14,560 bases of DNA from positions 1 through 14,560 of the forward strand of contig JBHLPR010000056.1 of NCBI GenBank assembly GCA_048939245.1. Direction: 5' to 3'. The stretch's first letter is position 1. Each line of letters begins with the position of its first letter. This document shows, piece after piece, positions 1 to 14,560 of this stretch. Source of the DNA: Promethearchaeota archaeon. GTDB taxonomy: Archaea > Asgardarchaeota > Hermodarchaeia > Hermodarchaeales > Hermodarchaeaceae. The notes below the pieces were generated by a model. That model was given only the letters and a program-made list of their open reading frames with translations, ran no database searches and was not told where the DNA came from. The position numbers were made by a program, and so were the translations under genes.

Positions 1-164
1 TTGAAGGATCCTCGATCCATCTCTTCGGCCAGCTTCTCGAGCTTTGCCATCTCTTGTTTTGATAAAGCCCCAGTCTTATAGAGCATGTGTCCCATCAATG
101 TGGATTTGCCGTGATCGACGTGTCCGATTATGATGAGATTGATGTGGGGTTTCTTTCCGGACAT
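1..164 (-). CDS. tuf: Translation elongation factor EF-1alpha (aEF1A), N-terminal part; runs off the left edge
   Basis: Not in the ORF track. Manual translation from ATG at 164: [34 protein letters not shown]..., the EF-1alpha G1 motif GHVDHGKST. Lies directly downstream of rps7. Confidence 0.93.
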   Translation of the reverse strand, partial: [54 protein letters not shown]

Positions 165-236
165 TGTTTGTTCAACTCATTTGTGTTAACTTAAGCTGGC
201 ATAAAATATGCAGGTGAAGGCACTTCAAGTGGGGCG

Positions 237-252
237 TATAAAACTCTTTTGG
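237..252 (-). promoter_or_regulatory. Putative BRE/TATA promoter for EF-1alpha
   Basis: Minus strand reads AAAAAGAG-TTTTATA about 75 nt upstream of the EF-1alpha ATG, in the rps7-tuf intergenic region. Confidence 0.5.
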
Positions 253-335
253 CGTTATGGGTTCTCAGAAGATAACAGAAGAGTGGTAGATGGGTTGGGT
301 TATTCTCGCCTTTGTGGTTTTCGTTTTTAAAGGGT

Positions 336-971
336 TTAGCGGGCTGATAGGGCCATACGTTCTTTTTCTTCTCTTCGTCGGACAGCATTGCTTCGGGAGT
401 CGCGGTTGGCGGTGGCAATGAGTTCATCGGCGATGATTTCTTCGATGGCTTCGATAGTGCTGAAGCTTCTGCGCCAAATACTTTCTGAGATGAAGCGGAG
501 GGCAAGATCTATACGTCGAAGCGGTGCCACATCACAGGCTGTGTGGTAGCTAATACCGCCGTATGAGATGCGAGTAGTTTCTTCACGAGGGGCGGCGTTT
601 TCGATAGCTTGGATGAGAATCTGGACCGGGTTTTGGTTGGCACGTAGATGAATAATTTCAAAAGCTGATCGTACAATGCGAATAGCAGTTGATTTTTTAC
701 CGGTGATAAGACCGGATTGTCGAGCGCTTTGGCTTCGTCGACTAGCCCATCCTGGAGTCATGAGGCGATTGATAAACCGTTCCACAATAGGTACTTGGCG
801 TTTTCCAAACCGTCGGTGCTCATGGCGACCAAAAGTGTGGGGGATGATTACAGGTCTGAGGCTGATATATTTGGCTAGACCTTGATCGTTAATTTGAATG
901 TCTTTTGTACTCCAGCGACCGAAGACCTTGATTTCTGGGAGCTTTGTTTCAGGGGGAGATTCTGAGGACAT
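336..971 (-). CDS. rps7: 30S ribosomal protein S7 (uS7)
   Basis: Motifs KVFGRWS, PHTFGRHEHRRFGK, IVERFINRLM, ENAAPREETTRI, DVAPLRRIDLAL, ERMALSAR; position after rps12. Confidence 0.97.
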   Translation of the reverse strand: MSSESPPETKLPEIKVFGRWSTKDIQINDQGLAKYISLRPVIIPHTFGRHEHRRFGKRQVPIVERFINRLMTPGWASRRSQSARQSGLITGKKSTAIRIVRSAFEIIHLRANQNPVQILIQAIENAAPREETTRISYGGISYHTACDVAPLRRIDLALRFISESIWRRSFSTIEAIEEIIADELIATANRDSRSNAVRRREEKERMALSAR

Positions 972-991
972 GATTTATCTACACCTTTCGG

Positions 992-1441
992 TTAGCGTTG
1001 CGGTTTTTCGACTTTGCCGATTATCATCGCTTCTAAGGATGCACCATTACATTTCACGACTTTCCAACGAACCCCAGGGAGGTCGCCGAAGGCTCTTCCA
1101 CGGGAGCCACCAATTCCTTCTACGATAACTTCGTCGTGTTCATCAACATAGGTGAGTGCACCATCACCCGGAAGGAATGCGGTAATTTGTCTACCATTAC
1201 GAATTAGCTGTACACGAACACACTTACGGATTGCCGAGTTTGGTTGCTTTGATTCAATTCCGACTTTTTCTAATACGATAGCCCGTGCTTGTGGACTTCC
1301 TTCAAGTGGGTCAGCTTTCACGTCAAGACGAAGCATTCGCCGCTTGTAGTAACGGTCTTTCCAGCGGTGTTTTTTTCGTTTCTTCTTTAACGTTCGGCCT
1401 GCAAATTCTCCTGATGGTGATTTTGATCCGGGCAATCTCAT
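992..1441 (-). CDS. rps12: 30S ribosomal protein S12 (uS12)
   Basis: Motifs [36 protein letters not shown] and [12 protein letters not shown]. The true start may be the TTG at 1435 (MPGSKSP...). Confidence 0.97.
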
Positions 1442-1520
1442 TTAACCTCTTTAATATTCAGGGTGCTGCGATTCTGTGAAGGAGCTTAAAACTTTTGTCA
1501 TCTATCGGTTGATGCAGTAG

Positions 1521-1985
1521 TTAGCCAGATGTATCAGGAGAAGCCTCGGCAATGATAATCGCATCAATTCCATGATGACGTTTTGCAAGTAGGCGAGCGC
1601 GTTCTATATTGCGTCCGTTCCTACCGATGACTCGGCCCCGATTTTCGCTCTTTACTGTAACTACGGCCACGCGACGTCCTTTGGATTGTTCTTGGACATT
1701 AACTGTGGTGACTTTAGCGGGGGCTAGAGCGTTTCGCACAAACGTTTCAGGTGTGTCTGCATCTTCAACTACATCGATATCACGTTTGAGCATAGTTCGT
1801 GCCCGTTTGATAGTCGTACCGCGACGACCTATGGCCAATCCTAGATGACCGGGGCTAACGACGAAAATAATCCGCTCGCCATCTTGATCGACGATGCAAT
1901 CTTTGACTTCCGCACCTGTGATATCGCCGAATAGAGCCATCAGTTTGATTTCTTCAATATTCAGTTTAATGTCTGAAGAAGTCAC
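1521..1985 (-). CDS. nusa: Archaeal NusA-like KH-domain transcription factor
   Basis: Motifs FGDITGAEVKDCIVD, GLAIGRRG, IGRNGRNIERARLLAKRH (two KH GxxG loops). Start reassigned from 2090 to GTG at 1985, which overlaps the rpl30e TGA (GTGA coupling). Confidence 0.92.
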   Translation of the reverse strand: MTSSDIKLNIEEIKLMALFGDITGAEVKDCIVDQDGERIIFVVSPGHLGLAIGRRGTTIKRARTMLKRDIDVVEDADTPETFVRNALAPAKVTTVNVQEQSKGRRVAVVTVKSENRGRVIGRNGRNIERARLLAKRHHGIDAIIIAEASPDTSG

Positions 1986-2290
1986 TTTTTGCCAGCCCCA
2001 GTTAGAACAGTAATGTCTGCGTCTCCAGGTTCTAAGACTGCCATGGCAGCCACCATATGTGGGCGTCCACATATTTGACCTAGATCCCAACTATTACTTC
2101 TGTATTGGTAAATCGGTATTTGATTTGCAGTTGCTAACATATCGATATCTTCAATCACTTCATTTGGTGCGTTCGCAGCTAGGATGACAACACGGGGAAC
2201 CCCAGTGCGAAGAAGATGGAGCGTGCGGTTGGCTCCAAAAACTGTTTTTCCTGATTTTACAGCTAATCGTATTGCAGTTTCAGCATCCAT
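1982..2290 (-). CDS. rpl30e: 50S ribosomal protein L30e (eL30)
   Basis: Motifs AVKSGKTVFGAN, VILAANAP, DLGQICGRPHMVAAMAVLEPGDADI; conserved position between rpoA2 and nusA. Confidence 0.95.
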   Translation of the reverse strand: MDAETAIRLAVKSGKTVFGANRTLHLLRTGVPRVVILAANAPNEVIEDIDMLATANQIPIYQYRSNSWDLGQICGRPHMVAAMAVLEPGDADITVLTGAGKK

Positions 2291-2410
2291 CAAGGATCAC
2301 TTTTTCCTATGTATTTTCATTCGTAATGCATCTGGTGATTAAGATTGCAAGTTACCGTGCCATATAAGGGCTACGGAACGAACGTGCAGTTCTGGCAGAA
2401 TTTAAACGCT

Positions 2411-2425
2411 CCCTTTTAAGTTCTC
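2411..2425 (-). promoter_or_regulatory. Putative BRE/TATA promoter for the rpl30e-nusA-rps12-rps7 unit
   Basis: Minus strand GAGAA-CTTAAAAGGG in the 208-nt rpoA2-rpl30e gap; same CTTAAAA core as upstream of rpoB and tRNA-Met. Confidence 0.45.
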
Positions 2426-2501
2426 TGCACACGCTGTGAGATAGTTTTGACCATTAATACTGTCTAATCTCAAAAGAAGATACCACCTTGAGCTCTGGCA
2501 A

Positions 2502-3713
<1,212 letters not shown>

Positions 3714-6362
3714 TCACTTCTCTTCACTTAAGACGCGTTCGATAATTACGTCAAGGTTCACAGCCTTCCCGTGGTCGCTTCGAGCTGGATCGACGCCGTC
3801 TTCGCCGTATTTGAATTGGATAATTTCGCCTGATGAATTTCTTACTGTTCCGTCGTATTCGACTTTGATATCTTGGAGCGCATTGATGAGTCGGCGTTGC
3901 ATGTATCCGCTGGTGCTTGTCCGGACTGCAGTGTCCACTAAGCCTTCTCGACCACCCATAGCATGGAAGAAGAATTCAATAGGATTCAGTCCTTTTCGAT
4001 AACTGGCAACTACAAATCCCCGGGCTTGTGGGGATAAATCGCCTTTAATGAAGTGGGGTAAAGTTCGTCTACGATAACCTCGCGAAATTCTTTGACCACG
4101 GACCGCTTGTTGCCCGACGCTAGCAGCCATTTGTGCCAAGTTAAGAGGATTACCTTTCGCCCCAGTTCCGGTCATGATAACCGCATGTTTGTCAAGTCCT
4201 AATTGCTGAGCGGCTACTTCTCCGGCTTCGTCACGTGCGCGGGCAAGGATTTCAATCATTTTCATTTCAAAGGTTTCTTCAATTGACCGCCCGGGAAGTC
4301 GCTGAAGTTCGTCCGCTTCATATATTTGAACGAGTTGATTCCCTTCTTCCTCTGCATCAGTGAGAATCTCCTCAATTTGACGAATGGCTGTTGGATTTAG
4401 AATTACATCATCAATTCCCATGCTGAACCCCATATTGGTAATAAGAACAACCAGTAGTGGGCATATTGCATCAAGAAACCGGCGGGCTGCGGAATTTCCA
4501 TAGTCTTTGGCGATTCGGTGTAAGACACTTTCGGGTTGGGCGGCACCTATTGCCTTTTTATCGATTACTCCAGCTAATAGCTGACCATCGCGAATTAACA
4601 CATAGGCGTCGTATGGGCAGTGTTCTTTTTCACAGACGTCGCATTTCCGGCAAATTCGGGCTTTCAGCGATAAATTTAGCCCCTTTGGAAGAAGCATACT
4701 GAAAATCTGTTTTCCTGTCCACATTGGTTCGGGTTCTAAGATAGTGGGTTTGGGAAGATCTTCACGATAACCAGCTGAAGCTAGAAGCTGACAGGTTTGA
4801 CGTTTGTTAAATATTGAATTCTTTCGAGTAAGAAGGAATGAAGAGGAGATATAATCCTGAATACCTCCAATGATCGGTCCGCCATACCTTGGACTGAGAA
4901 TCTGTTCCTGAACGAGCATGAGAATTCGTGCTTCAGCCCGAGCTTCTTCGCTTTGTGGAACATGAAGATTCATTTCATCTCCATCAAAGTCAGCATTATA
5001 GGGGGGGCAGACAACGAGATGTAGCCGGAATGTGCGATATTTCATGACCTTGACTTCATGAGCCATAATTGACATGCGATGCAGTGACGGTTGACGGTTG
5101 AAAAGAACAATGTCACCTGATCGAAGATGTCTTTCGATAACATATCCGGGAGCTAAACCATCTGCATTTGTCTTTCTATCTTTTACGTAGCGTAAATCGA
5201 TGCGTTTGCCATCAGGTCGTACAACATAGTTACATCCTGGATAGCCTTGCGGGCCTTTGAGGACCAGTTCACGCATATCCTCAATGTTCCATTCGGTTAC
5301 ACGTTCAGGAACTGTTAGGGTTTTAGCAATTTCTGAGGGAACTCCAACTTCGTTAATCGAGAGATTAGGATCAGGGGAAATAACTGTTCGAGCTGAGAAG
5401 TCAACCCGTTTTCCAGAGAGGTTGCTTCGGAACCGACCTTCTTTGCCTTTCAGACGTTGGGCTAATGTACGTAAGGCGCGACCAGACCGGTGACGAGCAG
5501 GGGGAATACCAGAGACTTCATTGTTGAAGTATGTGGTGATGTGATATTGGAGTAGTTCCCAAAGATCTTCAACAATAAGTTGTGGTGCGCCAGCTTCAAT
5601 GTTTTCTCGGAGTCGTTGATTAATCCGGATTACATCGACGAGTTTGTGTGTCAGGTCGTCTTCTGATTTTACTCCGGATTCTAATGTGATGGATGGACGC
5701 ACAGCGACTGGAGGAACAGGTTGAACTGTAAGAATCATCCATTCAGGTCGCGAGACACGTGTGTCAATACCCATAAGATAGTTATCATCAGGGGTGATGC
5801 GTTCCAATCGGTCTCGGATATCAGTAGGAGTTAGGCGAACGCTACCCTCCATTTTTTCTTCATAGAAGGTTGTAGGTTTTTCAAACTTGATTTTGTATTG
5901 TTCGGCTTCGCAATGCGGACAGGTTGTAGCCTTTCCTGCCTCTTTGAGGACCTCATCTGCAAGGTCTTGATCAAGATGCCCATATTTTTCAAAGTGTGCA
6001 TCTATTCGTTGTTTATATTTCTCCCAGGATTCATCCTTTAATTTCAATCGAGCACATCGCCGACAGAGGGCTTTGAGGAATTTCTTAATTTGCTTCGCGA
6101 AACTGACATGAACGACAGGGCGAGCTAATTCAATATGTCCAAAATGACCTGGACATTCACCGACGCGGTTTCCACAGGATTTACAACGTTGACCGGGTTC
6201 TATAGTTCCTAATTTAGGATCCATTAATCCTGAGGAAATAGGGAGTCCGTCCTCATCATAGGTGTCAGCGGTGATTACCTGGGTTACGCTCATTTTTCGG
6301 ATTATCTCAGGAGAAAGCAGTCCGAACCAAACACTTCCAACCTGTTTAAGTGGATGTGACAT
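3714..6362 (-). CDS. rpoA1: DNA-directed RNA polymerase subunit A' (Rpo1N)
   Basis: Zn-binding CKSC...CPGHFGHIEL, catalytic YNADFDGDEMN, TAVRTSTSGYMQRRL. ATG at 6362 is preceded by a GGGAGG SD. No intein evident from the length. Confidence 0.98.
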   Translation of the reverse strand: MSHPLKQVGSVWFGLLSPEIIRKMSVTQVITADTYDEDGLPISSGLMDPKLGTIEPGQRCKSCGNRVGECPGHFGHIELARPVVHVSFAKQIKKFLKALCRRCARLKLKDESWEKYKQRIDAHFEKYGHLDQDLADEVLKEAGKATTCPHCEAEQYKIKFEKPTTFYEEKMEGSVRLTPTDIRDRLERITPDDNYLMGIDTRVSRPEWMILTVQPVPPVAVRPSITLESGVKSEDDLTHKLVDVIRINQRLRENIEAGAPQLIVEDLWELLQYHITTYFNNEVSGIPPARHRSGRALRTLAQRLKGKEGRFRSNLSGKRVDFSARTVISPDPNLSINEVGVPSEIAKTLTVPERVTEWNIEDMRELVLKGPQGYPGCNYVVRPDGKRIDLRYVKDRKTNADGLAPGYVIERHLRSGDIVLFNRQPSLHRMSIMAHEVKVMKYRTFRLHLVVCPPYNADFDGDEMNLHVPQSEEARAEARILMLVQEQILSPRYGGPIIGGIQDYISSSFLLTRKNSIFNKRQTCQLLASAGYREDLPKPTILEPEPMWTGKQIFSMLLPKGLNLSLKARICRKCDVCEKEHCPYDAYVLIRDGQLLAGVIDKKAIGAAQPESVLHRIAKDYGNSAARRFLDAICPLLVVLITNMGFSMGIDDVILNPTAIRQIEEILTDAEEEGNQLVQIYEADELQRLPGRSIEETFEMKMIEILARARDEAGEVAAQQLGLDKHAVIMTGTGAKGNPLNLAQMAASVGQQAVRGQRISRGYRRRTLPHFIKGDLSPQARGFVVASYRKGLNPIEFFFHAMGGREGLVDTAVRTSTSGYMQRRLINALQDIKVEYDGTVRNSSGEIIQFKYGEDGVDPARSDHGKAVNLDVIIERVLSEEK

Positions 6363-6387
6363 TTTCAATTCCTCCCCATAATTATCA

Positions 6388-9300
6388 TCATGTTCTATCT
6401 GATAATTTCAGTCGAGGCCATATACCGAGAGAGATGAGTTCTTGCAAGACAAGTTTGAATGCATATGACATCTCAACTTTACTAATTGTAGTTGTTTTAG
6501 GTGCACAAACACGGCAGCGATACCGATCACGATTTCGATCATATTCAGCCAGCATTCCACATTCTTCGCAAACCATTGCGGTATACTTGTCTGACTCCTC
6601 TAGTAGTCGTTCGCGAAGAAGTAAGGCAGCTCCGTGACCGATTAAGCAGTCCCGTTCCATCTCACCAAAGCGTAAGCCGCCTTCCCGGGCACGTCCTTCA
6701 GTAGGTTGCCGGGTTAGAATTTGGACCGGACCGCGTGCTCGGGCATGCATTTTATCTGCAACGAGATGATGCAGTTTCTGATAATAGACAACACCAATGA
6801 ACAGGTCAACATCATATTTGTGACCCGTCACACCGTTATACATTGTTTCTCGTCCGCTATATTTGAAGCCTAACTTGTGAAGATCTTTGAACATCTCTTC
6901 AAGCTTTTTACCGGAGAAAGGTGTGGCATCGACGGGTTGTCCTTGTAGACAGCCGATTTTTCCTCCCATGGATTCAAGAATTTGTCCGAGGGTCATTCGA
7001 CTGGGGAAGGCGTGGGCGTTGACGACAAGATCAGGGACTATCCCTGTTTCAGTGAATGGCATATCTTCCTGTGGTGCAAGGAGACCAATGACGCCTTTTT
7101 GGCCGTGGCGGCTAGCGAACTTGTCCCCTAGCTCGGGAATGCGTTCATCTCGGACCTTGACCTTGACAAGGCGGTTTCCATCGATGGTTTCAGTGATGAG
7201 AACTTTATCAATTGTGCCTTGTTCACCGTGACGGAGACTTACAGAGGTTTCACGCCGTTTTGGTCCAGGTACTTCAAGTTCTGTATATTCTTCTAAAAAT
7301 CGAGGAGGACTGGTCCGTCCGATGAGAATTTCATCGCCACCAACTTGGAATTCGGGTTCAATGACGCCATCTTCGCTTAGTAAACGATAGGCTTCTGAAG
7401 CGCGATACCCGCGGACTTCTCGGCTAGGAATTTCGAATTTATCTTCTTGCCCACCGGGATATTTTCGTTCTTCTGCGTCATAGCTTCGGAAGAAGGATGA
7501 ACGGGCGATTCCGCGTTCAATGGATGCTTTATTGATAACAAGGGCATCTTCAATGTTGTATCCTTGGAATGAGTGGATGGCTACTATGAAGTTTTGTCCT
7601 GCTGGTCGTCGGTGATAGCCAATGACTTCCATGGGACGGGTGGTGACTACTGGGCTTTGAACATAATGTAGTATATGGCTGCGTGTATCGACGCGTAGAT
7701 TAAAATTGGCAGAGTAGAGTCCGAGAGCCTGCTTGGCCATTCCGGCTTCATAGGTATTACGTGGAGATTGGTTATGCTCAGCGAAGGGAACTAGACTGGC
7801 GCAGATTCCGAGAATGGTTTCGGGTACAATTTCAAGGTGAGTATGCTCAGGAGTGATGTCTTCAAGATTCATGGCGATGAGGGTGTTCTCTTCTTCCTCT
7901 GCATCGAGATATTCGATAATCCCAGCCTTAACCAAATCATCCCAAGAGATTTCACGATTTCGAACGCGTTCCACATGTTGTTTTTCAAGTAGCGGGACAC
8001 CGTCTTTTACGATGATAAGGGGTCGTCGAACCCGACCAGCATCGGAATTAATTTGAATTTCATTTGTATCGGGATAGAAGGCGATGTTTACCTGATCATT
8101 GAGTTCGTTTCTTTGCCGGCGATCACGAAGTCGGGTTACTAATAATTCAGGTTGTGGATGATTGCCCACAAAGCGTCCATTCAGGTAGACATAAGTGCCC
8201 TTTTTTGAAGCACCCGATTTTGTATCAATTGGTTGGACCTTTAATGAGAGAAGTGCTTCTTCCACTTCTGCTTCGTCTGAGCCAACGGAAATGTAGGACA
8301 TTAACGCGAGATTTTTGACAAGACCACAATTGGGGCCTTCTGGGGTTTCGTTGGGACAGATTTTTCCCCAATGTGTAGGATGAAGGTCTCGAGCTTCAAA
8401 GTGCGGTTGGCTTCGGCTTAGGGGAGATACTACTCGTCGAAGGTGGCTAATTGAGGACATATAGTTCACTCTATCAAGAAGCTGGCTGACCCCAGCTTTA
8501 CCACCGACCCAGTTCCCTGTTGCGAGGGCATGACGTAGCCTCTCTGTAATAACATCAGCGCGAACGGCGGTTTTGATATTAGGCTTACGTCCGCGTGTGG
8601 CAGTTCTTTCGAGTTGGTATTTGATGTCTCGGCAGAGATTAAGAAAAGCCACCCGGAAGAGGCTGGTAAGCAAATCGCCGGCAAGTTTCAACCGTTTATT
8701 GGCATAATGGTCTTTGTCATCTTCATGCCGTCGACCAACACTCAGTTCTATCAAACGTTGGGTCATTTGTCCGACATAATAAGCCTTATTGACTGCTGCG
8801 CCTGTATCAGTACCAACGTGAGGAAGAAGATAGCGGTTTAGAACCTGTTCTGCACGTCGGAGACGATAGTCCTTTGTTTGACCAACTGCTACTCGCTTTC
8901 CAATATAATCTAGTGCATTTTCACGAGTAGCTTTGGAGTCCTTCGGGGCCACTAACGATTCAGCGGCATGGAAGCTGGGAATTAACTCTTGAGCCAAATC
9001 AGGATCATCAGTAATAGCGGCCACAATTTCACGATCGGTAACCAGACCCAATGCCCGCATTAACACAACTAGGGGAATCTTTCCTGGTACTGAAGGGAAC
9101 GATACTCGAAAAGTATGATCTGCACGTCGTTCCATGGTCACAGGGGCACGAAAACCTCGAGCCGTCGAAAAGACTTTGGCCATATGAGTGCACGAACTAC
9201 TACTTGTGGCTTCTTCAATGAGAATCCGGTTTGGGGCAAGATCCTCTTGCGTCACCAACACGCGCTCCGAACCGTTAATGATGAAATATCCACCTGGATC

Positions 9301-9750
9301 ATTGGGATCTTCACCAGCATCGACGAGTTCTTCGGGTGTCATTGCTGAGAGCCGACAGAATGCGGATTTGAGCATAATAGGAAGCCTGCCCACGTACACG
9401 CTGGTCGTTTCCTCATCATATTCCATCCCGGTTTTTTCATCCCGATATACCGGGGTCATTTCCAAATAAATTGGAGAGGAGTAGGTTAGGTTCCGAATCC
9501 GTGCTTCCGCCGGAGCAATGTTACGTACGGAACCATCTGCTTCACGGACTGAGGGGTTCTGGATTTCAACGCGCCCTAGCCGTACATAATAATTGGGAAT
9601 ATCTGGCTCGATTTTGCCGACATCACTAACAATTTGTTGAATACGACGTTCAACGAAGTGATTGTACGAGTCCAGATGTTGTCGGACTAACCCCTTCGAT
9701 AGGAAGAAGGATTTCATAACTGCCCAACGGTCTTCAGATGAAAGTGCCAT
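6388..9750 (-). CDS. rpoB: DNA-directed RNA polymerase subunit B (Rpo2), unsplit
   Basis: 1120 aa; motifs GGYFIINGSERV, ETPEGPNCGLVKNL, GDKFASRHGQKG, GGLRFGEMERD, and a C-terminal Zn ribbon. Confidence 0.98.
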   Translation of the reverse strand: MALSSEDRWAVMKSFFLSKGLVRQHLDSYNHFVERRIQQIVSDVGKIEPDIPNYYVRLGRVEIQNPSVREADGSVRNIAPAEARIRNLTYSSPIYLEMTPVYRDEKTGMEYDEETTSVYVGRLPIMLKSAFCRLSAMTPEELVDAGEDPNDPGGYFIINGSERVLVTQEDLAPNRILIEEATSSSSCTHMAKVFSTARGFRAPVTMERRADHTFRVSFPSVPGKIPLVVLMRALGLVTDREIVAAITDDPDLAQELIPSFHAAESLVAPKDSKATRENALDYIGKRVAVGQTKDYRLRRAEQVLNRYLLPHVGTDTGAAVNKAYYVGQMTQRLIELSVGRRHEDDKDHYANKRLKLAGDLLTSLFRVAFLNLCRDIKYQLERTATRGRKPNIKTAVRADVITERLRHALATGNWVGGKAGVSQLLDRVNYMSSISHLRRVVSPLSRSQPHFEARDLHPTHWGKICPNETPEGPNCGLVKNLALMSYISVGSDEAEVEEALLSLKVQPIDTKSGASKKGTYVYLNGRFVGNHPQPELLVTRLRDRRQRNELNDQVNIAFYPDTNEIQINSDAGRVRRPLIIVKDGVPLLEKQHVERVRNREISWDDLVKAGIIEYLDAEEEENTLIAMNLEDITPEHTHLEIVPETILGICASLVPFAEHNQSPRNTYEAGMAKQALGLYSANFNLRVDTRSHILHYVQSPVVTTRPMEVIGYHRRPAGQNFIVAIHSFQGYNIEDALVINKASIERGIARSSFFRSYDAEERKYPGGQEDKFEIPSREVRGYRASEAYRLLSEDGVIEPEFQVGGDEILIGRTSPPRFLEEYTELEVPGPKRRETSVSLRHGEQGTIDKVLITETIDGNRLVKVKVRDERIPELGDKFASRHGQKGVIGLLAPQEDMPFTETGIVPDLVVNAHAFPSRMTLGQILESMGGKIGCLQGQPVDATPFSGKKLEEMFKDLHKLGFKYSGRETMYNGVTGHKYDVDLFIGVVYYQKLHHLVADKMHARARGPVQILTRQPTEGRAREGGLRFGEMERDCLIGHGAALLLRERLLEESDKYTAMVCEECGMLAEYDRNRDRYRCRVCAPKTTTISKVEMSYAFKLVLQELISLGIWPRLKLSDRT

Positions 9751-9975
9751 GTTCTACCCTCAGAGACGAATCTGCTCAATTGCGACGGGAATCCCACCCT
9801 CATCAGACGGTGTTATACTTCCAGCGAGCCCATATAGCCTTAGCCCGCATGAGAAACGTGGAATCCTGTGTCTATGAACGAGAACATCGTCTCTTCAGCA
9901 ATTTTGCCCAGGCAGAAACATGCGGCGCCAAACCAGCCGTCGCTCCAGCGAAGCAGACCGTCTGCGGAGTTACGC
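9751..9975 (-). ncRNA. Candidate structured 5' leader RNA of the rpoB operon
   Basis: GC-rich stretch with no credible ORF between a TATA-like box (~9995-10000) and the rpoB ATG. Nested helices: 9963-9951/9777-9764, 9943-9937/9788-9782, 9925-9919/9851-9845. Confidence 0.45.
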
Positions 9976-9992
9976 CGACAATGTACAAACGC

Positions 9993-10008
9993 CTTTTTAA
10001 GCTTTCGA
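9993..10008 (-). promoter_or_regulatory. Putative BRE/TATA promoter of the rpoB operon
   Basis: Minus strand CGAAAG-CTTAAAAAG fits the archaeal BRE + TATA arrangement. Confidence 0.55.
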
Positions 10009-10038
10009 TTAAACGCTTAGGGTTTCGATTAAACGCTT
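10003..10038. repeat. Tandem direct repeat, 2 x 16 bp (TTTCGATTAAACGCTT), 20-bp period
   Basis: Exact copies at 10003-10018 and 10023-10038. Confidence 0.9.
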
Positions 10039-10180
10039 CAATAACACAGTAAAAACCCATAATATTCGTCCCAACAATCACTAGAAAGTAAAAATGGTGC
10101 GCAACCATTGGCAAGGGGTTTATATTTGACAAACAGGACATGATTTCCTCACAACTTGAGTTTTAAGAGAGGTTTGAGCA

Positions 10181-10720
10181 GTGCCGTTGAAGATTGTAAT
10201 TGAATCGGAGAAAGATAGGTTTGGTTCGAGAGCCACCGGTGTGATGCTAGACAGGAAGAACCGAATCCTGCTATGTCAATTGGAAGGTGATGATCTCTGG
10301 GTTCTTCCAGGCGGTGGAATAGGCTTGCATGAAACCCTTCAGGAAACCGTTGAGAGAGAACTGTTCGAAGAGGCGAACTTCGAAATAAAGGTCCAACGAC
10401 TCCTCTGGATTATCGAGAATTTCTTCATCTTCCATGCCAAGAAACACCACATCCTTGAATTCTACTTCCTCGTAACACCCAAAGAATCCACAGGAATCTG
10501 GGAACAAGACGAGTTCGAAGGACAAGAAGACTTCCTTGACGCAGACAACTTCTGGAGCCTCCCAGAAGGTAGGACTCCGTTAAACTTCAAATGGTTCGAC
10601 ATCGCAAAACTCAGCGAGATCAACTTCAAACCCACCATCCTCATCGAACTGCTCAAAGACCTCCCAACGTACCCCACCCATGTAGTATGGGATACCTACG
10701 GAAGAAACACCGAAAGTTAA
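10181..10720 (+). CDS. Nudix-family hydrolase
   Basis: Nudix box LPGG-GIGLH-E-TLQETVE-RELFEE (GX5EX7REUXEE). GTG start with a GAGGT SD at 10169-10173. Confidence 0.88.
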   Translation: MPLKIVIESEKDRFGSRATGVMLDRKNRILLCQLEGDDLWVLPGGGIGLHETLQETVERELFEEANFEIKVQRLLWIIENFFIFHAKKHHILEFYFLVTPKESTGIWEQDEFEGQEDFLDADNFWSLPEGRTPLNFKWFDIAKLSEINFKPTILIELLKDLPTYPTHVVWDTYGRNTES

Positions 10721-10763
10721 TCCCCTTCATCCAACACAAAGAAGCTAATAAGAAAAGAAGAAG

Positions 10764-10871
10764 TGGCGCCCGTTCCGGGATTCGAACCCGAGTCCTAGGA
10801 GATCCGCAGATCTATGAGCAGCATAGACCGTTGACAGTCCCAGATGATAGACCTGGCTACACTAAACGGGC
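10764..10871 (-). tRNA. tRNA-Asp(GTC) with a 30-nt canonical 37/38 intron (10802-10831); CCA encoded
   Basis: Acceptor GCCCGTT/AACGGGC-G-CCA; anticodon loop CT-GTC-A|C; T-arm TCGGG-TTCGAAT-CCCGG. Relaxed BHB: central helix CTGT/GCGG, intron hairpin GGTCTATG/CATAGATC. Confidence 0.93.
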
Positions 10872-10944
10872 ACACGTGTTTTTTTGTGGATTCCGTTGTG
10901 GGATTTAAAGATTGCTCTGCTCTGAGTGACTTGTTAGGGGGAGT

Positions 10945-11076
10945 TGGTCCCGGCGCCCGGATTTGAACCAGGAACCATCTGGTATCTGCGTTGGTTGACA
11001 CCGGGTCATTGCCGTGTGGCTCAGGGTGCGGTGTGTACCTACAGCCAGACGCTCTACCAGGTTGAGCTACGCCGGG
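10945..11076 (-). tRNA. tRNA-Tyr(GTA) with a 55-nt canonical 37/38 intron (10984-11038); CCA encoded
   Basis: Acceptor CCCGGCG/CGCCGGG-A-CCA (C1-G72 archaeal Tyr identity); stem TCTGG/CCAGA; loop CT-GTA-G|A; BHB helix CTGT/GCAG. Confidence 0.95.
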
Positions 11077-11103
11077 GTTGCGAAAAATGGTTTGGGTGGC
11101 TGG

Positions 11104-11118
11104 CTTATAAGAGTTTTC
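11104..11118 (-). promoter_or_regulatory. BRE/TATA promoter of tRNA-Tyr
   Basis: Minus strand GAAAACTC-TTATAAG about 28-34 nt upstream of the tRNA 5' end. Confidence 0.65.
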
Positions 11119-11605
11119 AAAGGGTTTTGGTGAAAAGTTGAGTAAGAGTGGTGATGATTTCGTTAGCAGCGTGTTGAACGGGTTCTGAGAGCGGTTGGGT
11201 AAATTCGTCAGTGAATGGTTGGACACCAAGGATGAGGATTGTCGTGGGGATGTTGTTTTCGAGGTATTCGATGAAGAAGGTGAGGGGGAGTTGGTGTGAG
11301 GAGAAGGCGACGCCGCCGATGGTCTCCTTGTCGATGAGCTTGATAGTCCCGGCTTCAGCTTGCATTAGAGCAGCGTCGATAAGGAGGATGAGGTCAGGTT
11401 TTAATTCGATAAGATGACTGATGAAGTTTTCAGGGACGGTGCTGGCGTTGATCAGTTCAATGTGTGGGGGGTTATGGGTTTGGAGTTGTTCAATGACATA
11501 GGGTCCAATGCCATCATCTGCTTTGAGATCATTTCCAACGCCGAGGATGGCAATTTTCGATGAATCGGCAAAGACTGTATTCAGTCGCTGTTTCCAAGTT
11601 GTCAT
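11117..11605 (-). CDS. hycI: Hydrogenase maturation protease, HycI-like (peptidase A31)
   Basis: Motifs ILGVGNDLKADDGIG, STVPENF, LIDAALM, FSSHQLPL, ILGVQP. Start at ATG 11605 or GTG 11608. Confidence 0.88.
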   Translation of the reverse strand: MTTWKQRLNTVFADSSKIAILGVGNDLKADDGIGPYVIEQLQTHNPPHIELINASTVPENFISHLIELKPDLILLIDAALMQAEAGTIKLIDKETIGGVAFSSHQLPLTFFIEYLENNIPTTILILGVQPFTDEFTQPLSEPVQHAANEIITTLTQLFTKTL

Positions 11606-11668
11606 CACGTCAGGGAAACGGTAAGAGTGTTATATAGCTTCGCCTCTTGTCGGTTCAGTAAATGGTAG

Positions 11669-12268
11669 ATGATAATGGCAGAAGAGAAGCATGAAAAATC
11701 GCTCGTAGAGAAAGAAGGCGTTCAACTTCCAGATGAACCCATTCACGCAAGATTGACACGTGGTAAGGTCGTGGTGAGAGATGAGTTCGCCCCACTGCTG
11801 TATAAGGCGGGTTATTATGGGACGCTAAAAAGCGAGAACCGGTTAGTGCTTGAGCCGGAAGAGGCGTTATTGTTAGCTCGCCGTGAACGAATTGTAGTTA
11901 GTGAGATAAAAGGCGAGTTGCTGGATTTTTCGACATTGCTTGAGCGGTTAGGAGAAGGACGAGCTGGTCTCTGGACTCGTTTTTTGGTGTATAGTGATTT
12001 GCGAAGCCGTGGATATGTGGTGCGTACAGGATATGGGAAGGGATTATTATTTCGTGTCTACCCGCGTGGGGCAAAACTGAATGAGGCGACGGCGAAATAT
12101 TTTGTATGTGCAATTTCAGAAGGGGCGCCGCTCAAAGTAGGAGAGCTTGATGCCTTTAGTAAGCAGGCAAAACGGAACCGAAAAAAACTGATGTTGGCAG
12201 TATTGGATCGGCAAGGTGAAACAACCTATTACTTGGTTTCACCTGCTGATATTGTTGCAGAAAAATGA
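11669..12268 (+). CDS. endA: tRNA-splicing endonuclease subunit, probably the structural (beta) subunit
   Basis: EndA fold motifs LEPEEALLL, FLVYSDLRSRGYVVRTG, FRVYPRG, KKLMLAVLDRQGETTYY. The catalytic His is missing (VYPRGAKLNEATAKYFV), and GYG replaces the GxKFG of catalytic units. Confidence 0.88.
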   Translation: MIMAEEKHEKSLVEKEGVQLPDEPIHARLTRGKVVVRDEFAPLLYKAGYYGTLKSENRLVLEPEEALLLARRERIVVSEIKGELLDFSTLLERLGEGRAGLWTRFLVYSDLRSRGYVVRTGYGKGLLFRVYPRGAKLNEATAKYFVCAISEGAPLKVGELDAFSKQAKRNRKKLMLAVLDRQGETTYYLVSPADIVAEK

Positions 12269-12284
12269 GCAATTAGATTGAGAA

Positions 12285-12407
12285 TGGCGGGCCCGCCGGG
12301 AATTTCGACGTTTGTTTCTTGGAACGTTTTCGAACCCGGGATTTCCAGCTTAGGAGGCTGGCGCCTTCTCCGGGGAGAAGTGTCCTATCCGACTTGGCCA
12401 CGGGCCC
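12285..12407 (-). tRNA. tRNA-Arg(CCT) with two non-canonical introns: D-loop 20a/21 (12368-12386, 19 nt) and T-loop 59/60 (12302-12328, 27 nt)
   Basis: Acceptor GGGCCCG/CGGGCCC-G-CCA; anticodon arm CCAGC-CT-CCT-AA-GCTGG. T-loop intron is a strict BHB (TTCG/CGAA, ACGTT/AACGT). D-loop intron has helices TCGG/CCGG and GGA/TCC. Removing both gives a normal 77-nt tRNA. Confidence 0.9.
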
Positions 12408-12454
12408 AGAACATCTAGTGTGGAGAGAGGCTGAAGGTTTATGCATGTTTCGAT

Positions 12455-13141
12455 TCAGCGTTGAAGCAGTTTTGCGCCTTTGTCTTGACCGACGTAGACA
12501 ACATCTGCTTGAGTTGGAAATAGACCGTTTTCAATAACCCCAGGAATCGCATTCAATTGGGCTTCTAGTTGACTTGGGTTGGGAATTTGTGTAAATGTGA
12601 CATCTAAAATGAAATTTCCATTATCTGTGATTAGCGGACCAGCCTTTCGCTTCGCTTGCCGGAGTAGTGGTGAGCCATCCAAGCGTTGAATTCGGTCCAT
12701 GGTGAGTGCCAATGCTTCGGGAAGAACTTCAACGGGAACTGGCATCTTGGTTCCAAGCTTGTCCACCAGTTTGCTACTATCCACAATAATCACGACCTGT
12801 TGAGCGGCTTCCGCCAAGATTTTTTCTCGGAGAAGCGCGGCCCCACCTCCTTTGATTAGAGCTAGTTCGGAATCCACTTCATCAGCACCATCGACCGCAC
12901 ATGCCAAACTGGTTATCGCTCCAAGCGGCACTGTATTGATTCCCGTATCATGAAGGCGTAACTCCGTAGCATGTGAACTGGGAACCGCGGTTAATGTGAT
13001 ATTTTCTGAAACAATTTTCTCGACCAACAAATCAATGAATATCTCAACAGTAGATCCGGTGCCGATGCCAAGGCACATGCCATCTGAAACATGGTTAATC
13101 GCGGCTTCAGCTGCAAATCGCTTTTCGTTATCAACTGTCAA
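12455..13141 (-). CDS. rpiA: Ribose-5-phosphate isomerase A
   Basis: Motifs LGIGTGST, VDGADEVD, IKGGGAALLREKI, ITDNGNFILD, IPGVIENGLF. Likely TTG start at 13141 after a GAGGTG SD (13156-13151); the ORF track extends to 13180. Confidence 0.95.
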   Translation of the reverse strand: MTVDNEKRFAAEAAINHVSDGMCLGIGTGSTVEIFIDLLVEKIVSENITLTAVPSSHATELRLHDTGINTVPLGAITSLACAVDGADEVDSELALIKGGGAALLREKILAEAAQQVVIIVDSSKLVDKLGTKMPVPVEVLPEALALTMDRIQRLDGSPLLRQAKRKAGPLITDNGNFILDVTFTQIPNPSQLEAQLNAIPGVIENGLFPTQADVVYVGQDKGAKLLQR

Positions 13142-13253
13142 CGTGCACAACACCTCACATGACTCGAAGCAACATAGCAATTCAACCCTTCGACCCTTAA
13201 AAAGTCATCATTACCTTGGTGAATAGTACAGACTAGTTTCTGTGAAGAAAAGG

Positions 13254-13330
13254 TGGAGCCTCGGGCGGGATTCGAACCCGCGACCCCTGCCTTACCAAGG
13301 CAGTGCGCTACCATGCTATGCCACCGAGGC
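13254..13330 (-). tRNA. tRNA-Thr(GGT), intronless; CCA encoded
   Basis: GCCTCGG/CCGAGGC-T-CCA; CTGCC-TT-GGT-AA-GGCAG; GCGGG-TTCGAAT-CCCGC. Confidence 0.95.
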
Positions 13331-13343
13331 TCAGCATTTTGAT

Positions 13344-13491
13344 TGGTGCCGAGGGCGGGCTTTCCGCGATGCCCATGAGACGTCGGTTCGAACCCGCGAC
13401 CTCCAGATATCTCAGGCGCCAGAAACGACAATTCTGACCCTTGGGCAAAGCCCTATGAGTCTGGCGCCCTACCAGGCTAGGCAACCTCGGC
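13344..13491 (-). tRNA. Elongator tRNA-Met(CAT) with two introns: 37/38 (13409-13453, 45 nt) and 59/60 (13361-13386, 26 nt)
   Basis: Acceptor GCCGAGG/CCTCGGC-A-CCA (G1-C72, so not initiator); CCAGA-CT-CAT-A|A-TCTGG with BHB CTCA/TGAG; T-loop BHB TTCG/CGGA with CGA/TCG. Spliced length 77 nt. Confidence 0.9.
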
Positions 13492-13513
13492 AGCACTTAA
13501 CCCCAGCGCGTAC

Positions 13514-13532
13514 CTTTTAAGCATTTTTCTCG
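13514..13532 (-). promoter_or_regulatory. BRE/TATA promoter of the tRNA-Met/tRNA-Thr(GGT) unit
   Basis: Minus strand CGAGAAAAATG-CTTAAAAG about 23-30 nt upstream of tRNA-Met. Confidence 0.65.
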
Positions 13533-13574
13533 CCATGCTCACCATACACTCTTTCCCTTCTAATTTTACCTACA

Positions 13575-13590
13575 CGAAGCAATTTTAAGC
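13575..13590 (+). promoter_or_regulatory. BRE/TATA promoter of the tRNA-Leu/tRNA-Thr(TGT) unit
   Basis: CGAAGCAA-TTTTAAGC. This is the only TATA-like box between the divergent tRNA-Met promoter and tRNA-Leu; it implies a start near 13610 and a ~50-nt leader. Confidence 0.55.
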
Positions 13591-13663
13591 ACCAAAACAA
13601 CTTTCTCACGCCACCATCTTTGCGGGGGCGTGTCCAAGGGTATGCGCCCGCAATGACTAAGCG

Positions 13664-13774
13664 GCGGGGGTATCTCCCCAGACGGAGACCCCACAGCCAA
13701 GCTTGGTCAAAGGCGCAGGACTTAAGATCCTGTCTCGTAGGAGTTCCCGGGTTCGAAGCCCGGCCCCCGCACCA
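13664..13774 (+). tRNA. tRNA-Leu(TAA) with a 23-nt intron at position 8/9 (13672-13694); CCA encoded
   Basis: Acceptor GCGGGGG/CCCCCGC-A-CCA; CAGGA-CT-TAA-GA-TCCTG; long variable arm; CCGGG-TTCGAAG-CCCGG. Strict BHB: GGC/GCC, central GGGG/CCCC, bulges GT|A and AC|A, intron stem TCTCC/GGAGA. Spliced length 88 nt. Confidence 0.9.
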
Positions 13775-13821
13775 CACCCCTCCGACAAATTAATCAACCG
13801 TGTATGTATAACTGAAAACGA

Positions 13822-13896
13822 GCCTCCGTGGCCTAGTGGTAGGGCTATAGCCTTGTAAGCTATCGATCCCGGGTTCAAATCCCGGCGGAGGCTCCA
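13822..13896 (+). tRNA. tRNA-Thr(TGT), intronless; CCA encoded
   Basis: GCCTCCG/CGGAGGC-T-CCA; ATAGC-CT-TGT-AA-GCTAT; CCGGG-TTCAAAT-CCCGG. Confidence 0.95.
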
Positions 13897-13943
13897 ATTT
13901 TGTTTATGAGTTTTTAGATATTTTTGAGCTGTTCATTGTTGAA

Positions 13944-14560
13944 ATGAAAAAAGTGGACATTCTTACTGTTTCACGGGCTTTGGATGAAGCGAAGGTATGG
14001 CATAAGATTCAAAGTGATTTTATCTGCACTAAAAAAACACGAGTAAAGATTCCGAAGATCAACGATAAGGTTGCCTACCTTGCAGGAGTGATTACTGGTG
14101 ATGGGTATCTGACTAGGTGTAAAAGGAAAAATGGTTATTACCACTACCTAGTGGGAATTGTGGGTCGCCGAGAATTCACTGAAGAAGTGTTAAACTTGAT
14201 TAGAAATATCTTCCATTATAAGCCAGGTTTTTACAAAGACAAAAGAAAGAACAATTGTTATTATGTTAATATCTGCTCTGTGGCGGTTTTTTTCTTTTTC
14301 ATTGAATTGGGTTTTCAATCAGGAAAGAAACGAAATATTAGGGTGCCCTCGTTGATTGCAGACGATGCTTCGCTCTTTAAGCATTATATGTGCGGGTTAA
14401 TTGATACGGATGGTTTTATTGACAAGAAGAGAGTGCAATTGAAGCAGAAGGACAAGGGTTTTCTGAAAGAGCTTGTGGGTCTTTTGAAGAAGCATTTCGG
14501 GATTATTTCAAGGCCTCCGAAGGTTAATTTCACGGAAGGAAAGCCGTACTATTACATTCG
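13944..14560 (+). CDS. Free-standing two-motif LAGLIDADG homing-endonuclease-like protein; runs off the right edge
   Basis: Not in the ORF track. Open frame from ATG 13944 to the window end (205 codons): MKKVDIL...VAYLAGVITGDGYL...GKKRNIRVPSLI...HYMCGLIDTDGFI... Both motifs keep the acidic residue. Confidence 0.85.
   Translation, partial: MKKVDILTVSRALDEAKVWHKIQSDFICTKKTRVKIPKINDKVAYLAGVITGDGYLTRCKRKNGYYHYLVGIVGRREFTEEVLNLIRNIFHYKPGFYKDKRKNNCYYVNICSVAVFFFFIELGFQSGKKRNIRVPSLIADDASLFKHYMCGLIDTDGFIDKKRVQLKQKDKGFLKELVGLLKKHFGIISRPPKVNFTEGKPYYYI

Follow-up and report, generated by a model that had tools for sequence, protein, structure and literature searches.

A tRNA gene near the end of the 14,560 nt window analysed here (contig JBHLPR010000056.1 of a Promethearchaeota archaeon of the Hermodarchaeaceae, positions 1 to 14,560) raises the question of how an intron can be excised at all when its splice motif requires the acceptor strand, so that two folds essential to the same RNA compete. 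The initial annotation had placed 23 extra nt between U8 and A9 of a tRNA-Leu(UAA) in this window. The gene, the putative intron and the elements of its BHB motif are:

13664-13774, plus strand: unspliced tRNA-Leu(UAA) gene, containing the 23 nt insert
13664..13671, plus strand: 5′ exon, tRNA positions 1-8, GCGGGGG-U, from the sequence and the ARAGORN cloverleaf
13672..13694, plus strand: putative 23 nt BHB intron at the U8/A9 boundary, from the motif, the junction, orthologues and shuffles
13695..13774, plus strand: 3′ exon, positions 9-73 and an encoded CCA (13772-13774), anticodon UAA, from the ARAGORN cloverleaf
G13663/G13664/C13665 with G13696/C13697/C13698, plus strand: BHB outer helix, G-1, G1 and C2 with G10, C11 and C12
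G13670 U13671 A13672, plus strand: first bulge, G7 U8 A
G13666-G13669 with C13689-C13692, plus strand: central helix, G3-G6 with CCCC
A13693 C13694 A13695, plus strand: second bulge, A C A9
13673-13677 with 13684-13688, plus strand: intron helix, UCUCC with GGAGA

The insert can be read directly in the sequence at 13672-13694, and the annotated geometry (3 bp / 3-nt bulge / 4 bp / 3-nt bulge / 5 bp) is indeed present at 13663-13698. Cutting after the second nucleotide of each bulge, as had been proposed, removes 13672-13694 and leaves 88 nt, which ARAGORN identifies as tRNA-Leu(taa); the cloverleaf is clean and of class II, with a long variable arm, a 7-bp acceptor stem, A73 and an encoded CCA. 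The predicted spliced junction is GCGGGGGU|AGCCAAG, the 3′ exon starting with AGCCAAG and ending with CCCCCGC-A-CCA (13764-13774). The exons are contiguous, in order and on one strand, and the gene is thus neither split nor permuted. A purpose-written BHB scorer returned H=4, h′=5 and h=3 at precisely the register that restores the tRNA, and the strict hBHBh′ criterion (flanking helices of at least 2 bp) is met, with h=3, including the pair made by leader base -1, and h′=5. When the 23 intron bases were shuffled 200,000 times, H=4 with h′ of at least 5 occurred at this register in only 4 shuffles. Equally strict motifs are common in raw sequence, with 19 over both strands of the window, and the weight of the argument is therefore carried by the exact junction and by the comparisons described below rather than by the motif alone. 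RNAfold favours a register slipped by one G within the G-run, so that the 3-nt bulges are to be understood as the rule of the enzyme and not as the energy minimum. Within the window, cleavage at 8/9 and at 9/10 would give the same product because both the intron and the 3′ exon (A9) begin with A; in seven orthologues with an intron that starts with T, 8/9 is the only workable site. The outer pair that uses the leader base -1 (G13663) had also been recognized correctly in the window, but only 9 of the 14 orthologues preserve it.

That standard tRNA finders might miss such a gene proved to be the case. ARAGORN and the Rfam tRNA model (RF00005) both detected the four other tRNAs of the window and both were without the unspliced tRNA-Leu(UAA), and the gene was also absent from the output of a genome-wide Rfam search. 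No second tRNA-Leu(UAA) was found by BLAST and pattern searches of the assembly, which is 88% complete; BLAST alone gave three Leu-like loci in the genome and the pattern search added Leu(UAG), none being a second UAA gene. As judged from sequence, this is a real-looking, functional-type class II tRNA-Leu(UAA), single copy in the 88%-complete assembly and apparently essential, and the assignment of 13663-13698 to a BHB-type intron at 8/9 is supported, in the absence of RNA evidence.

An exact-pattern scan, with one genome per species, located the same gene in MAGs designated Candidatus Hermodarchaeota or Promethearchaeota. The orthologue set consists of 14 genomes of one family and two genera, the host, nine of the same genus and four of a sister genus, and the insert is at the same site of tRNA-Leu(UAA) in all 14. 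The exons are almost invariant, with one variable-arm base that differs in two genomes; the intron loop is freely variable and the flanks vary too. The intron helix has undergone double substitutions (UCUCC/GGAGA, UCUAC/GUAGA and UCAC/GUGA), and the central helix is fully paired (4/4) in 14 of 14, with changes from G-C to G-U. With the BHB structure as named above, 93.8% of cells are paired across the 14 sequences, versus 20-45% when the partner strand is slid, and three pairs have changed on both sides. Only moderate weight can be placed on this covariation because the orthologues are related; they are kin and not independent cases. In the sister genus, the intron is reduced to 14-16 nt and the inner helix to h′=2. 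Among all genes found to bear an 8/9 intron, the central helix is 4/4 in 40 of 41.

The initial annotation had seen a role for the leader in the single outer pair made by base -1. This was correct as far as it went, but the part played by the leader appears to be much larger, with a spare acceptor strand and a stretch complementary to the D-loop among the following upstream elements:

13575..13589, plus strand: BRE/TATA promoter-like element, CGAAGC AATTTTAAG, conserved among orthologues
13612..13663, plus strand: inferred pre-tRNA 5′ leader, ~50 nt and conserved, its start estimated from the TATA distance
13622..13628, plus strand: spare 5′ acceptor strand GCGGGGG, proposed partner of 13764-13770, from conservation and the minimum-energy fold
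13629..13654, plus strand: leader hairpin and spacer, -21.8 kcal/mol alone, able to refold onto the spare strand, function not shown
13655..13662, plus strand: leader stretch GACUAAGC, complementary to the D-loop GCUUGGUC (13701-13708), extending the BHB outer helix

The distance from the end of the TATA element to the upstream GCGGGGG is 30-33 nt wherever the TATA pattern was matched, in 9 of the 14 Leu(UAA) genes (where it is 31-33 nt) and in all 12 Leu(CAA) genes, so the upstream copy occupies the spot, relative to the TATA box, at which the 5′ end of a tRNA usually lies. The real 5′ end of tRNA-Leu(UAA) is 39-43 nt beyond this copy in the orthologues. The exact 7-mer is present upstream of all 12 Leu(CAA) orthologues and of every Leu(UAA) orthologue but one (13/14), or 25/26 in total, and outside the 7-mer the Leu(UAA) and Leu(CAA) leaders of the host genome are identical at only 23 of 39 positions. 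The hairpin and spacer are partly conserved in sequence. Pairs between leader and D-loop are kept in 11-14 of the 14 sequences, with one double change from A-U to G-C in the sister genus. As MAFFT misaligns the spare strand, its pairs were counted by script, and there is no true covariation of the copy with the 3′ strand because the acceptor sequences are invariant within each gene family. The possibility that the leader is a decayed copy of the D-arm, or of exon 1 plus intron, was considered and rejected, as local alignment beyond the 7-mer was no better than for shuffles (p 0.51 and 0.74).

The BHB is built in part from acceptor bases 1-6 and so must compete with the acceptor stem; as it also borrows bases 10-12 of the D-stem, it can form only while both the acceptor and D stems are open. 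A leaderless Leu(UAA) precursor is predicted to fold to the acceptor stem with no BHB, and the same holds for all 40 genes folded without leader, the BHB core being formed in 0/40 and the true acceptor stem in 40/40. Folded with its leader, the region from 13612 to 13774 has a predicted energy of -76.7 kcal/mol (z = -4.0 versus shuffles). In this minimum-energy fold the upstream copy is paired to the 3′ acceptor strand, the BHB core is formed, GACUAAGC is paired to the D-loop GCUUGGUC and the anticodon, variable and T arms are normal. With the leader present, the BHB core is formed in the minimum-energy folds of 14 of 14 Leu(UAA) orthologues, and in 14 of 14 the 3′ strand is paired to the leader. 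The conserved leader, these results suggest, is the means by which the cell resolves the conflict of folds. Replacement of the spare strand by its complement in silico did not remove the BHB core in 10 of the 14 Leu(UAA) folds, and the copy alone is therefore insufficient as an explanation; the stretch that pairs with the D-loop may matter more. When the precursors were spliced in silico with the leader still attached, the copy continued to hold the 3′ strand in 12 of 14 folds. Refolding before RNase P cleavage is therefore not explained by energies alone and, by inference, must then depend on proteins, on tertiary interactions or on the hairpin within the leader itself (-21.8 kcal/mol).

On this basis, we consider it likely that the tRNA-Leu(UAA) gene is functional and has an 8/9 BHB intron, the splicing of which is aided by a leader that carries a spare acceptor strand, although RNA evidence is lacking. 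Transcription would start a few bases before 13622, both this start and transcription of the leader being inferred. The leader copy of the 5′ acceptor strand would pair with the real 3′ acceptor strand and so block displacement of the BHB, and leader bases -9 to -2 would extend the outer helix by pairing with the D-loop. With the real 5′ strand thus free to pair with the C-run at the 3′ end of the intron, EndA would cut both bulges and RtcB would join U8 to A9. The tRNA would then refold, and RNase P would remove the leader. The motif, the exact junction, the conservation and covariation, the co-occurrence of spare strand and intron documented below, the folds (as predictions) and the genes for the enzymes are all observed; it is by inference that the leader is transcribed, that the steps occur in this order, that the tRNA refolds and that the leader is needed at all.

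Spare strand and 8/9 intron occur together in three tRNA genes, those for Leu(UAA), Leu(CAA) and His. The other genes that bear on this association, of which the first four are in the host genome (G000), are:

G000:C115:17733-17916 (locus L077), plus strand: tRNA-Leu(CAA), 8/9 intron, spare acceptor strand 42 nt upstream
G000:C78:4234-4385 (locus L076), minus strand: tRNA-His(GUG), three BHB introns, at 8/9, in the D-loop and at 37/38
G000:C12:1123-1239, plus strand: tRNA-Leu(UAG) with a T-loop intron
G000:C73:9387-9502, plus strand: tRNA-Leu(GAG) with a D-arm intron, called tRNA-Arg(tcg) by ARAGORN
Loci L049 and L071: tRNA-Leu(GAG) of two Bathyarchaeia hot-spring MAGs, with a 23-24 nt BHB intron at 8/9

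The tRNA-Leu(CAA) gene apparently has four inserts, at 8/9, in the anticodon stem, after the anticodon and in the T-loop, and all 12 Leu(CAA) orthologues have GCGGGGG at 40-43 nt upstream. The Leu(GAG) and Leu(UAG) genes of the host have the same GCGGGGG/CCCCCGC stem, with introns elsewhere, and have no upstream copy. The spare strand is thus present only where an early intron is present, and at the normal promoter distance; this co-occurrence is observed, and any causal role would be an inference. When the genome was scanned permissively for early BHBs accompanied by a matching 3′ strand, most of the 304 hits were attributable to chance, and the scan therefore provides no unbiased test of the association. 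In the families of other Asgard archaea that were sampled, Leu genes lacked this intron, and no upstream copy was seen in the ~65 bases before their 5′ ends. The two Bathyarchaeia Leu(GAG) genes have a near-copy of the acceptor strand, GCGGAGG, 11 nt upstream, and suggest that the 8/9 site arose or spread beyond Asgard. Their 3′ strands also pair with the leader, but the BHB core is absent from their minimum-energy folds.

ARAGORN miscalls tRNA-His(GUG) as a tRNA-Cys(gca) with an 83-nt intron. Recursive removal of BHB motifs, judged by ARAGORN, led to spurious class II calls, and the His introns were therefore solved by hand and then checked. With the three BHB introns removed, the tRNA is clean, and the central helix of the 8/9 motif is made with bases 3-6. 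The acceptor strand of tRNA-His differs from that of the Leu genes, and it is a copy of this strand, its own, that is found 12-13 nt upstream. Ten orthologues have it as GCCGGGG, GCUGGGA or GCCGGGA, and the host and one other genome have 6-of-7 versions (GCCGGGC and GCCGGGU); in a sister-genus His gene, GCUGGGA is located 16 nt upstream. The variants GCCGGGG and GCUGGGA remain able to pair with the 3′ strand. Intron and copy are present together in 14 of the 17 His orthologues; the remaining three, all from the sister genus, have neither. The copy is positioned 27 nt past a TATA-like box, and in the intron-less His genes it is the real 5′ end that is at 27-28 nt. The copy is also part of a 9-nt direct repeat, with CGUGCCGGG present twice, 3-4 nt apart. 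In the sister genus, the 5′ region is intron-less at loci L091, L094 and L096, and locus L092 has both the 8/9 intron and the spare strand; two of the three intron-less loci also do not have the 37/38 intron. Such a presence/absence polymorphism within one genus should be useful for dating gain or loss of the intron. The tRNA-His(GUG) gene has A73 and no encoded G-1, the base at -1 being U, and Thg1 (PF04446) was not found in the 88%-complete host genome.

How intron DNA enters tRNA genes is an open question (bioRxiv 10.64898/2026.10.13.758758), and the comparison of His genes with and without the intron bears on it, as the spare strand is located at the old 5′ end. It also gives substance to a reading in which the intron is real and spliced, and the upstream copy is a mere insertion scar with no role in folding or splicing, left when incoming DNA, bearing the intron and a fresh 5′ strand, was inserted behind the original 5′ end. 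The location of the His copy within a 9-nt direct repeat, where the intron-less orthologues have one copy at the same TATA distance, is as expected from such an event. The BHB core is also retained in most folds with a complemented copy, and co-transcriptional folding could build the BHB before the 3′ strand exists. A scar would, however, account for the origin of the copy and not for its retention. All but one of the 26 Leu genes have the exact 7-mer beside leaders that, in the host, are only 23/39 identical, a pattern which, as far as sequence comparison can tell, speaks for retention by selection, and the His variants are pairing-compatible transitions, with the exception of position 7. A scar without function therefore seems unlikely to us. 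The two ideas are compatible, and insertion may well be the origin of a copy that was later kept for function.

The remaining alternatives concern the gene itself. Were the upstream GCGGGGG the true 5′ acceptor strand, with everything up to 13694 one large intron, the normal promoter spacing of this copy would be accounted for, and the 3′ strand can indeed pair with either copy equally well. The base after the upstream copy is C in Leu(UAA), or A in Leu(CAA), and not U8, and no BHB could be recognized by eye at such a junction, making this arrangement scarcely conceivable. As a candidate 5′ exon, the upstream copy was rejected, as its direct joining to A9 would cost the tRNA position 8. That the locus is a pseudogene, or has a tolerated insertion that is never spliced, cannot be countered with RNA data, of which there are none, and standard finders do not call the gene. 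The initial annotation had named a pseudogene as the outcome that would refute it, and this is contradicted by exons that are almost invariant in 14 genomes while the flanks and intron loop vary, by covariation in the intron helix, by the absence of any other detected Leu(UAA) gene and by conservation of the promoter-like element; we regard it as very improbable. The reading preferred here thus remains a spliced 8/9 intron with assistance from the leader. Its extension to a general rule is tentative, and we judge it possible without being able to call it probable. Archaeal tRNA introns within the first ten bases would depend on a cis-acting leader, which provides a stand-in acceptor strand and a D-loop splint and is the stranded old 5′ end left when DNA with a new 5′ strand and an intron was inserted. 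If true, pre-tRNA folding aids of a new class would be defined, and there would be tangible evidence of how such introns are gained.

Non-canonical introns in archaeal tRNA genes have been documented at 20/21, 22/23, 25/26, 29/30, 30/31, 45/46, 53/54, 56/57 and 59/60, with 3/4 as the extreme case (PMC4090602), and intron positions are described as seemingly random in the tRNAscan-SE 2 paper (PMC8450103). According to the initial annotation, 8/9 is not known to be among the reported positions, and it is indeed missing from the list in PMC4090602; novelty is nevertheless a negative drawn from limited literature, which does not extend to the original intron catalogues of Sugahara (2008) and of Marck and Grosjean (2003). 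The introns described here resemble the non-canonical BHB introns of Thermoproteales and other Crenarchaeota (PMC4090602) in their hBHBh′ motif, enzyme family and short length, and differ in the 8/9 position, in a motif made from the acceptor strand itself and in the conserved leader with its spare strand. Asgard classes in which most tRNA genes are interrupted have been published (PMC11291895; 2026 preprint). As in those cases, an Asgard host has many tRNA genes with several non-canonical introns, some of which are missed by annotators. The published reports concern other classes and mention leaders in neither case ('leader' has 0 occurrences), and the earliest intron listed in the published Atabeyarchaeia-1 table begins ~15 bases into the gene. 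Because finders miss or miscall such genes, as with the His gene called tRNA-Cys by ARAGORN, the tRNA sets of Asgard MAGs look incomplete when they are complete. In split and permuted tRNA genes (Nanoarchaeum, Caldivirga and Cyanidioschyzon; PMC3218864, PMC3978253), sequence from outside also pairs with the tRNA to build a BHB that is cut by EndA. Here, unlike in those systems, the gene is contiguous and in normal order and the leader is neither joined nor cut by EndA; if it acts, it would do so as a stand-in strand that is then removed by RNase P. No paper describing the combination of a leader-borne spare acceptor strand with a 5′-proximal intron was found in the searchable literature.

The host genome encodes two EndA paralogues, RtcB and an archaeal RNase P RNA. 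The presence of two EndA paralogues is as in the broad-specificity heterotetramer. One of them is encoded within the window, close to several tRNA genes:

10767-10871, minus strand: tRNA-Asp(GUC) with a 30-32 nt intron near the anticodon
10948-11076, minus strand: tRNA-Tyr(GUA) with a 55-58 nt intron near the anticodon
11669..12268, plus strand: tRNA-splicing endonuclease (EndA) paralogue, Pfam PF01974 and PF02778
13944-14558, plus strand: AT-rich open frame with LAGLIDADG and homing-endonuclease domains (PF14528, 2.7e-11), running past the window end

The EndA paralogue of the window is 26% identical to the second copy, on contig C90, and in the alignment it seems to be without the catalytic His of the D-H-S stretch that is present in the other copy. 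It is probably, on this alignment, the structural (beta-like) subunit, as in a heterotetrameric alpha-beta enzyme. The tRNA genes clustered around it are those for Asp(GUC), Tyr(GUA), Thr(GGU), Leu(UAA) and Thr(UGU), and the LAGLIDADG frame at 13944-14558 is located directly 3′ of tRNA-Thr(UGU).
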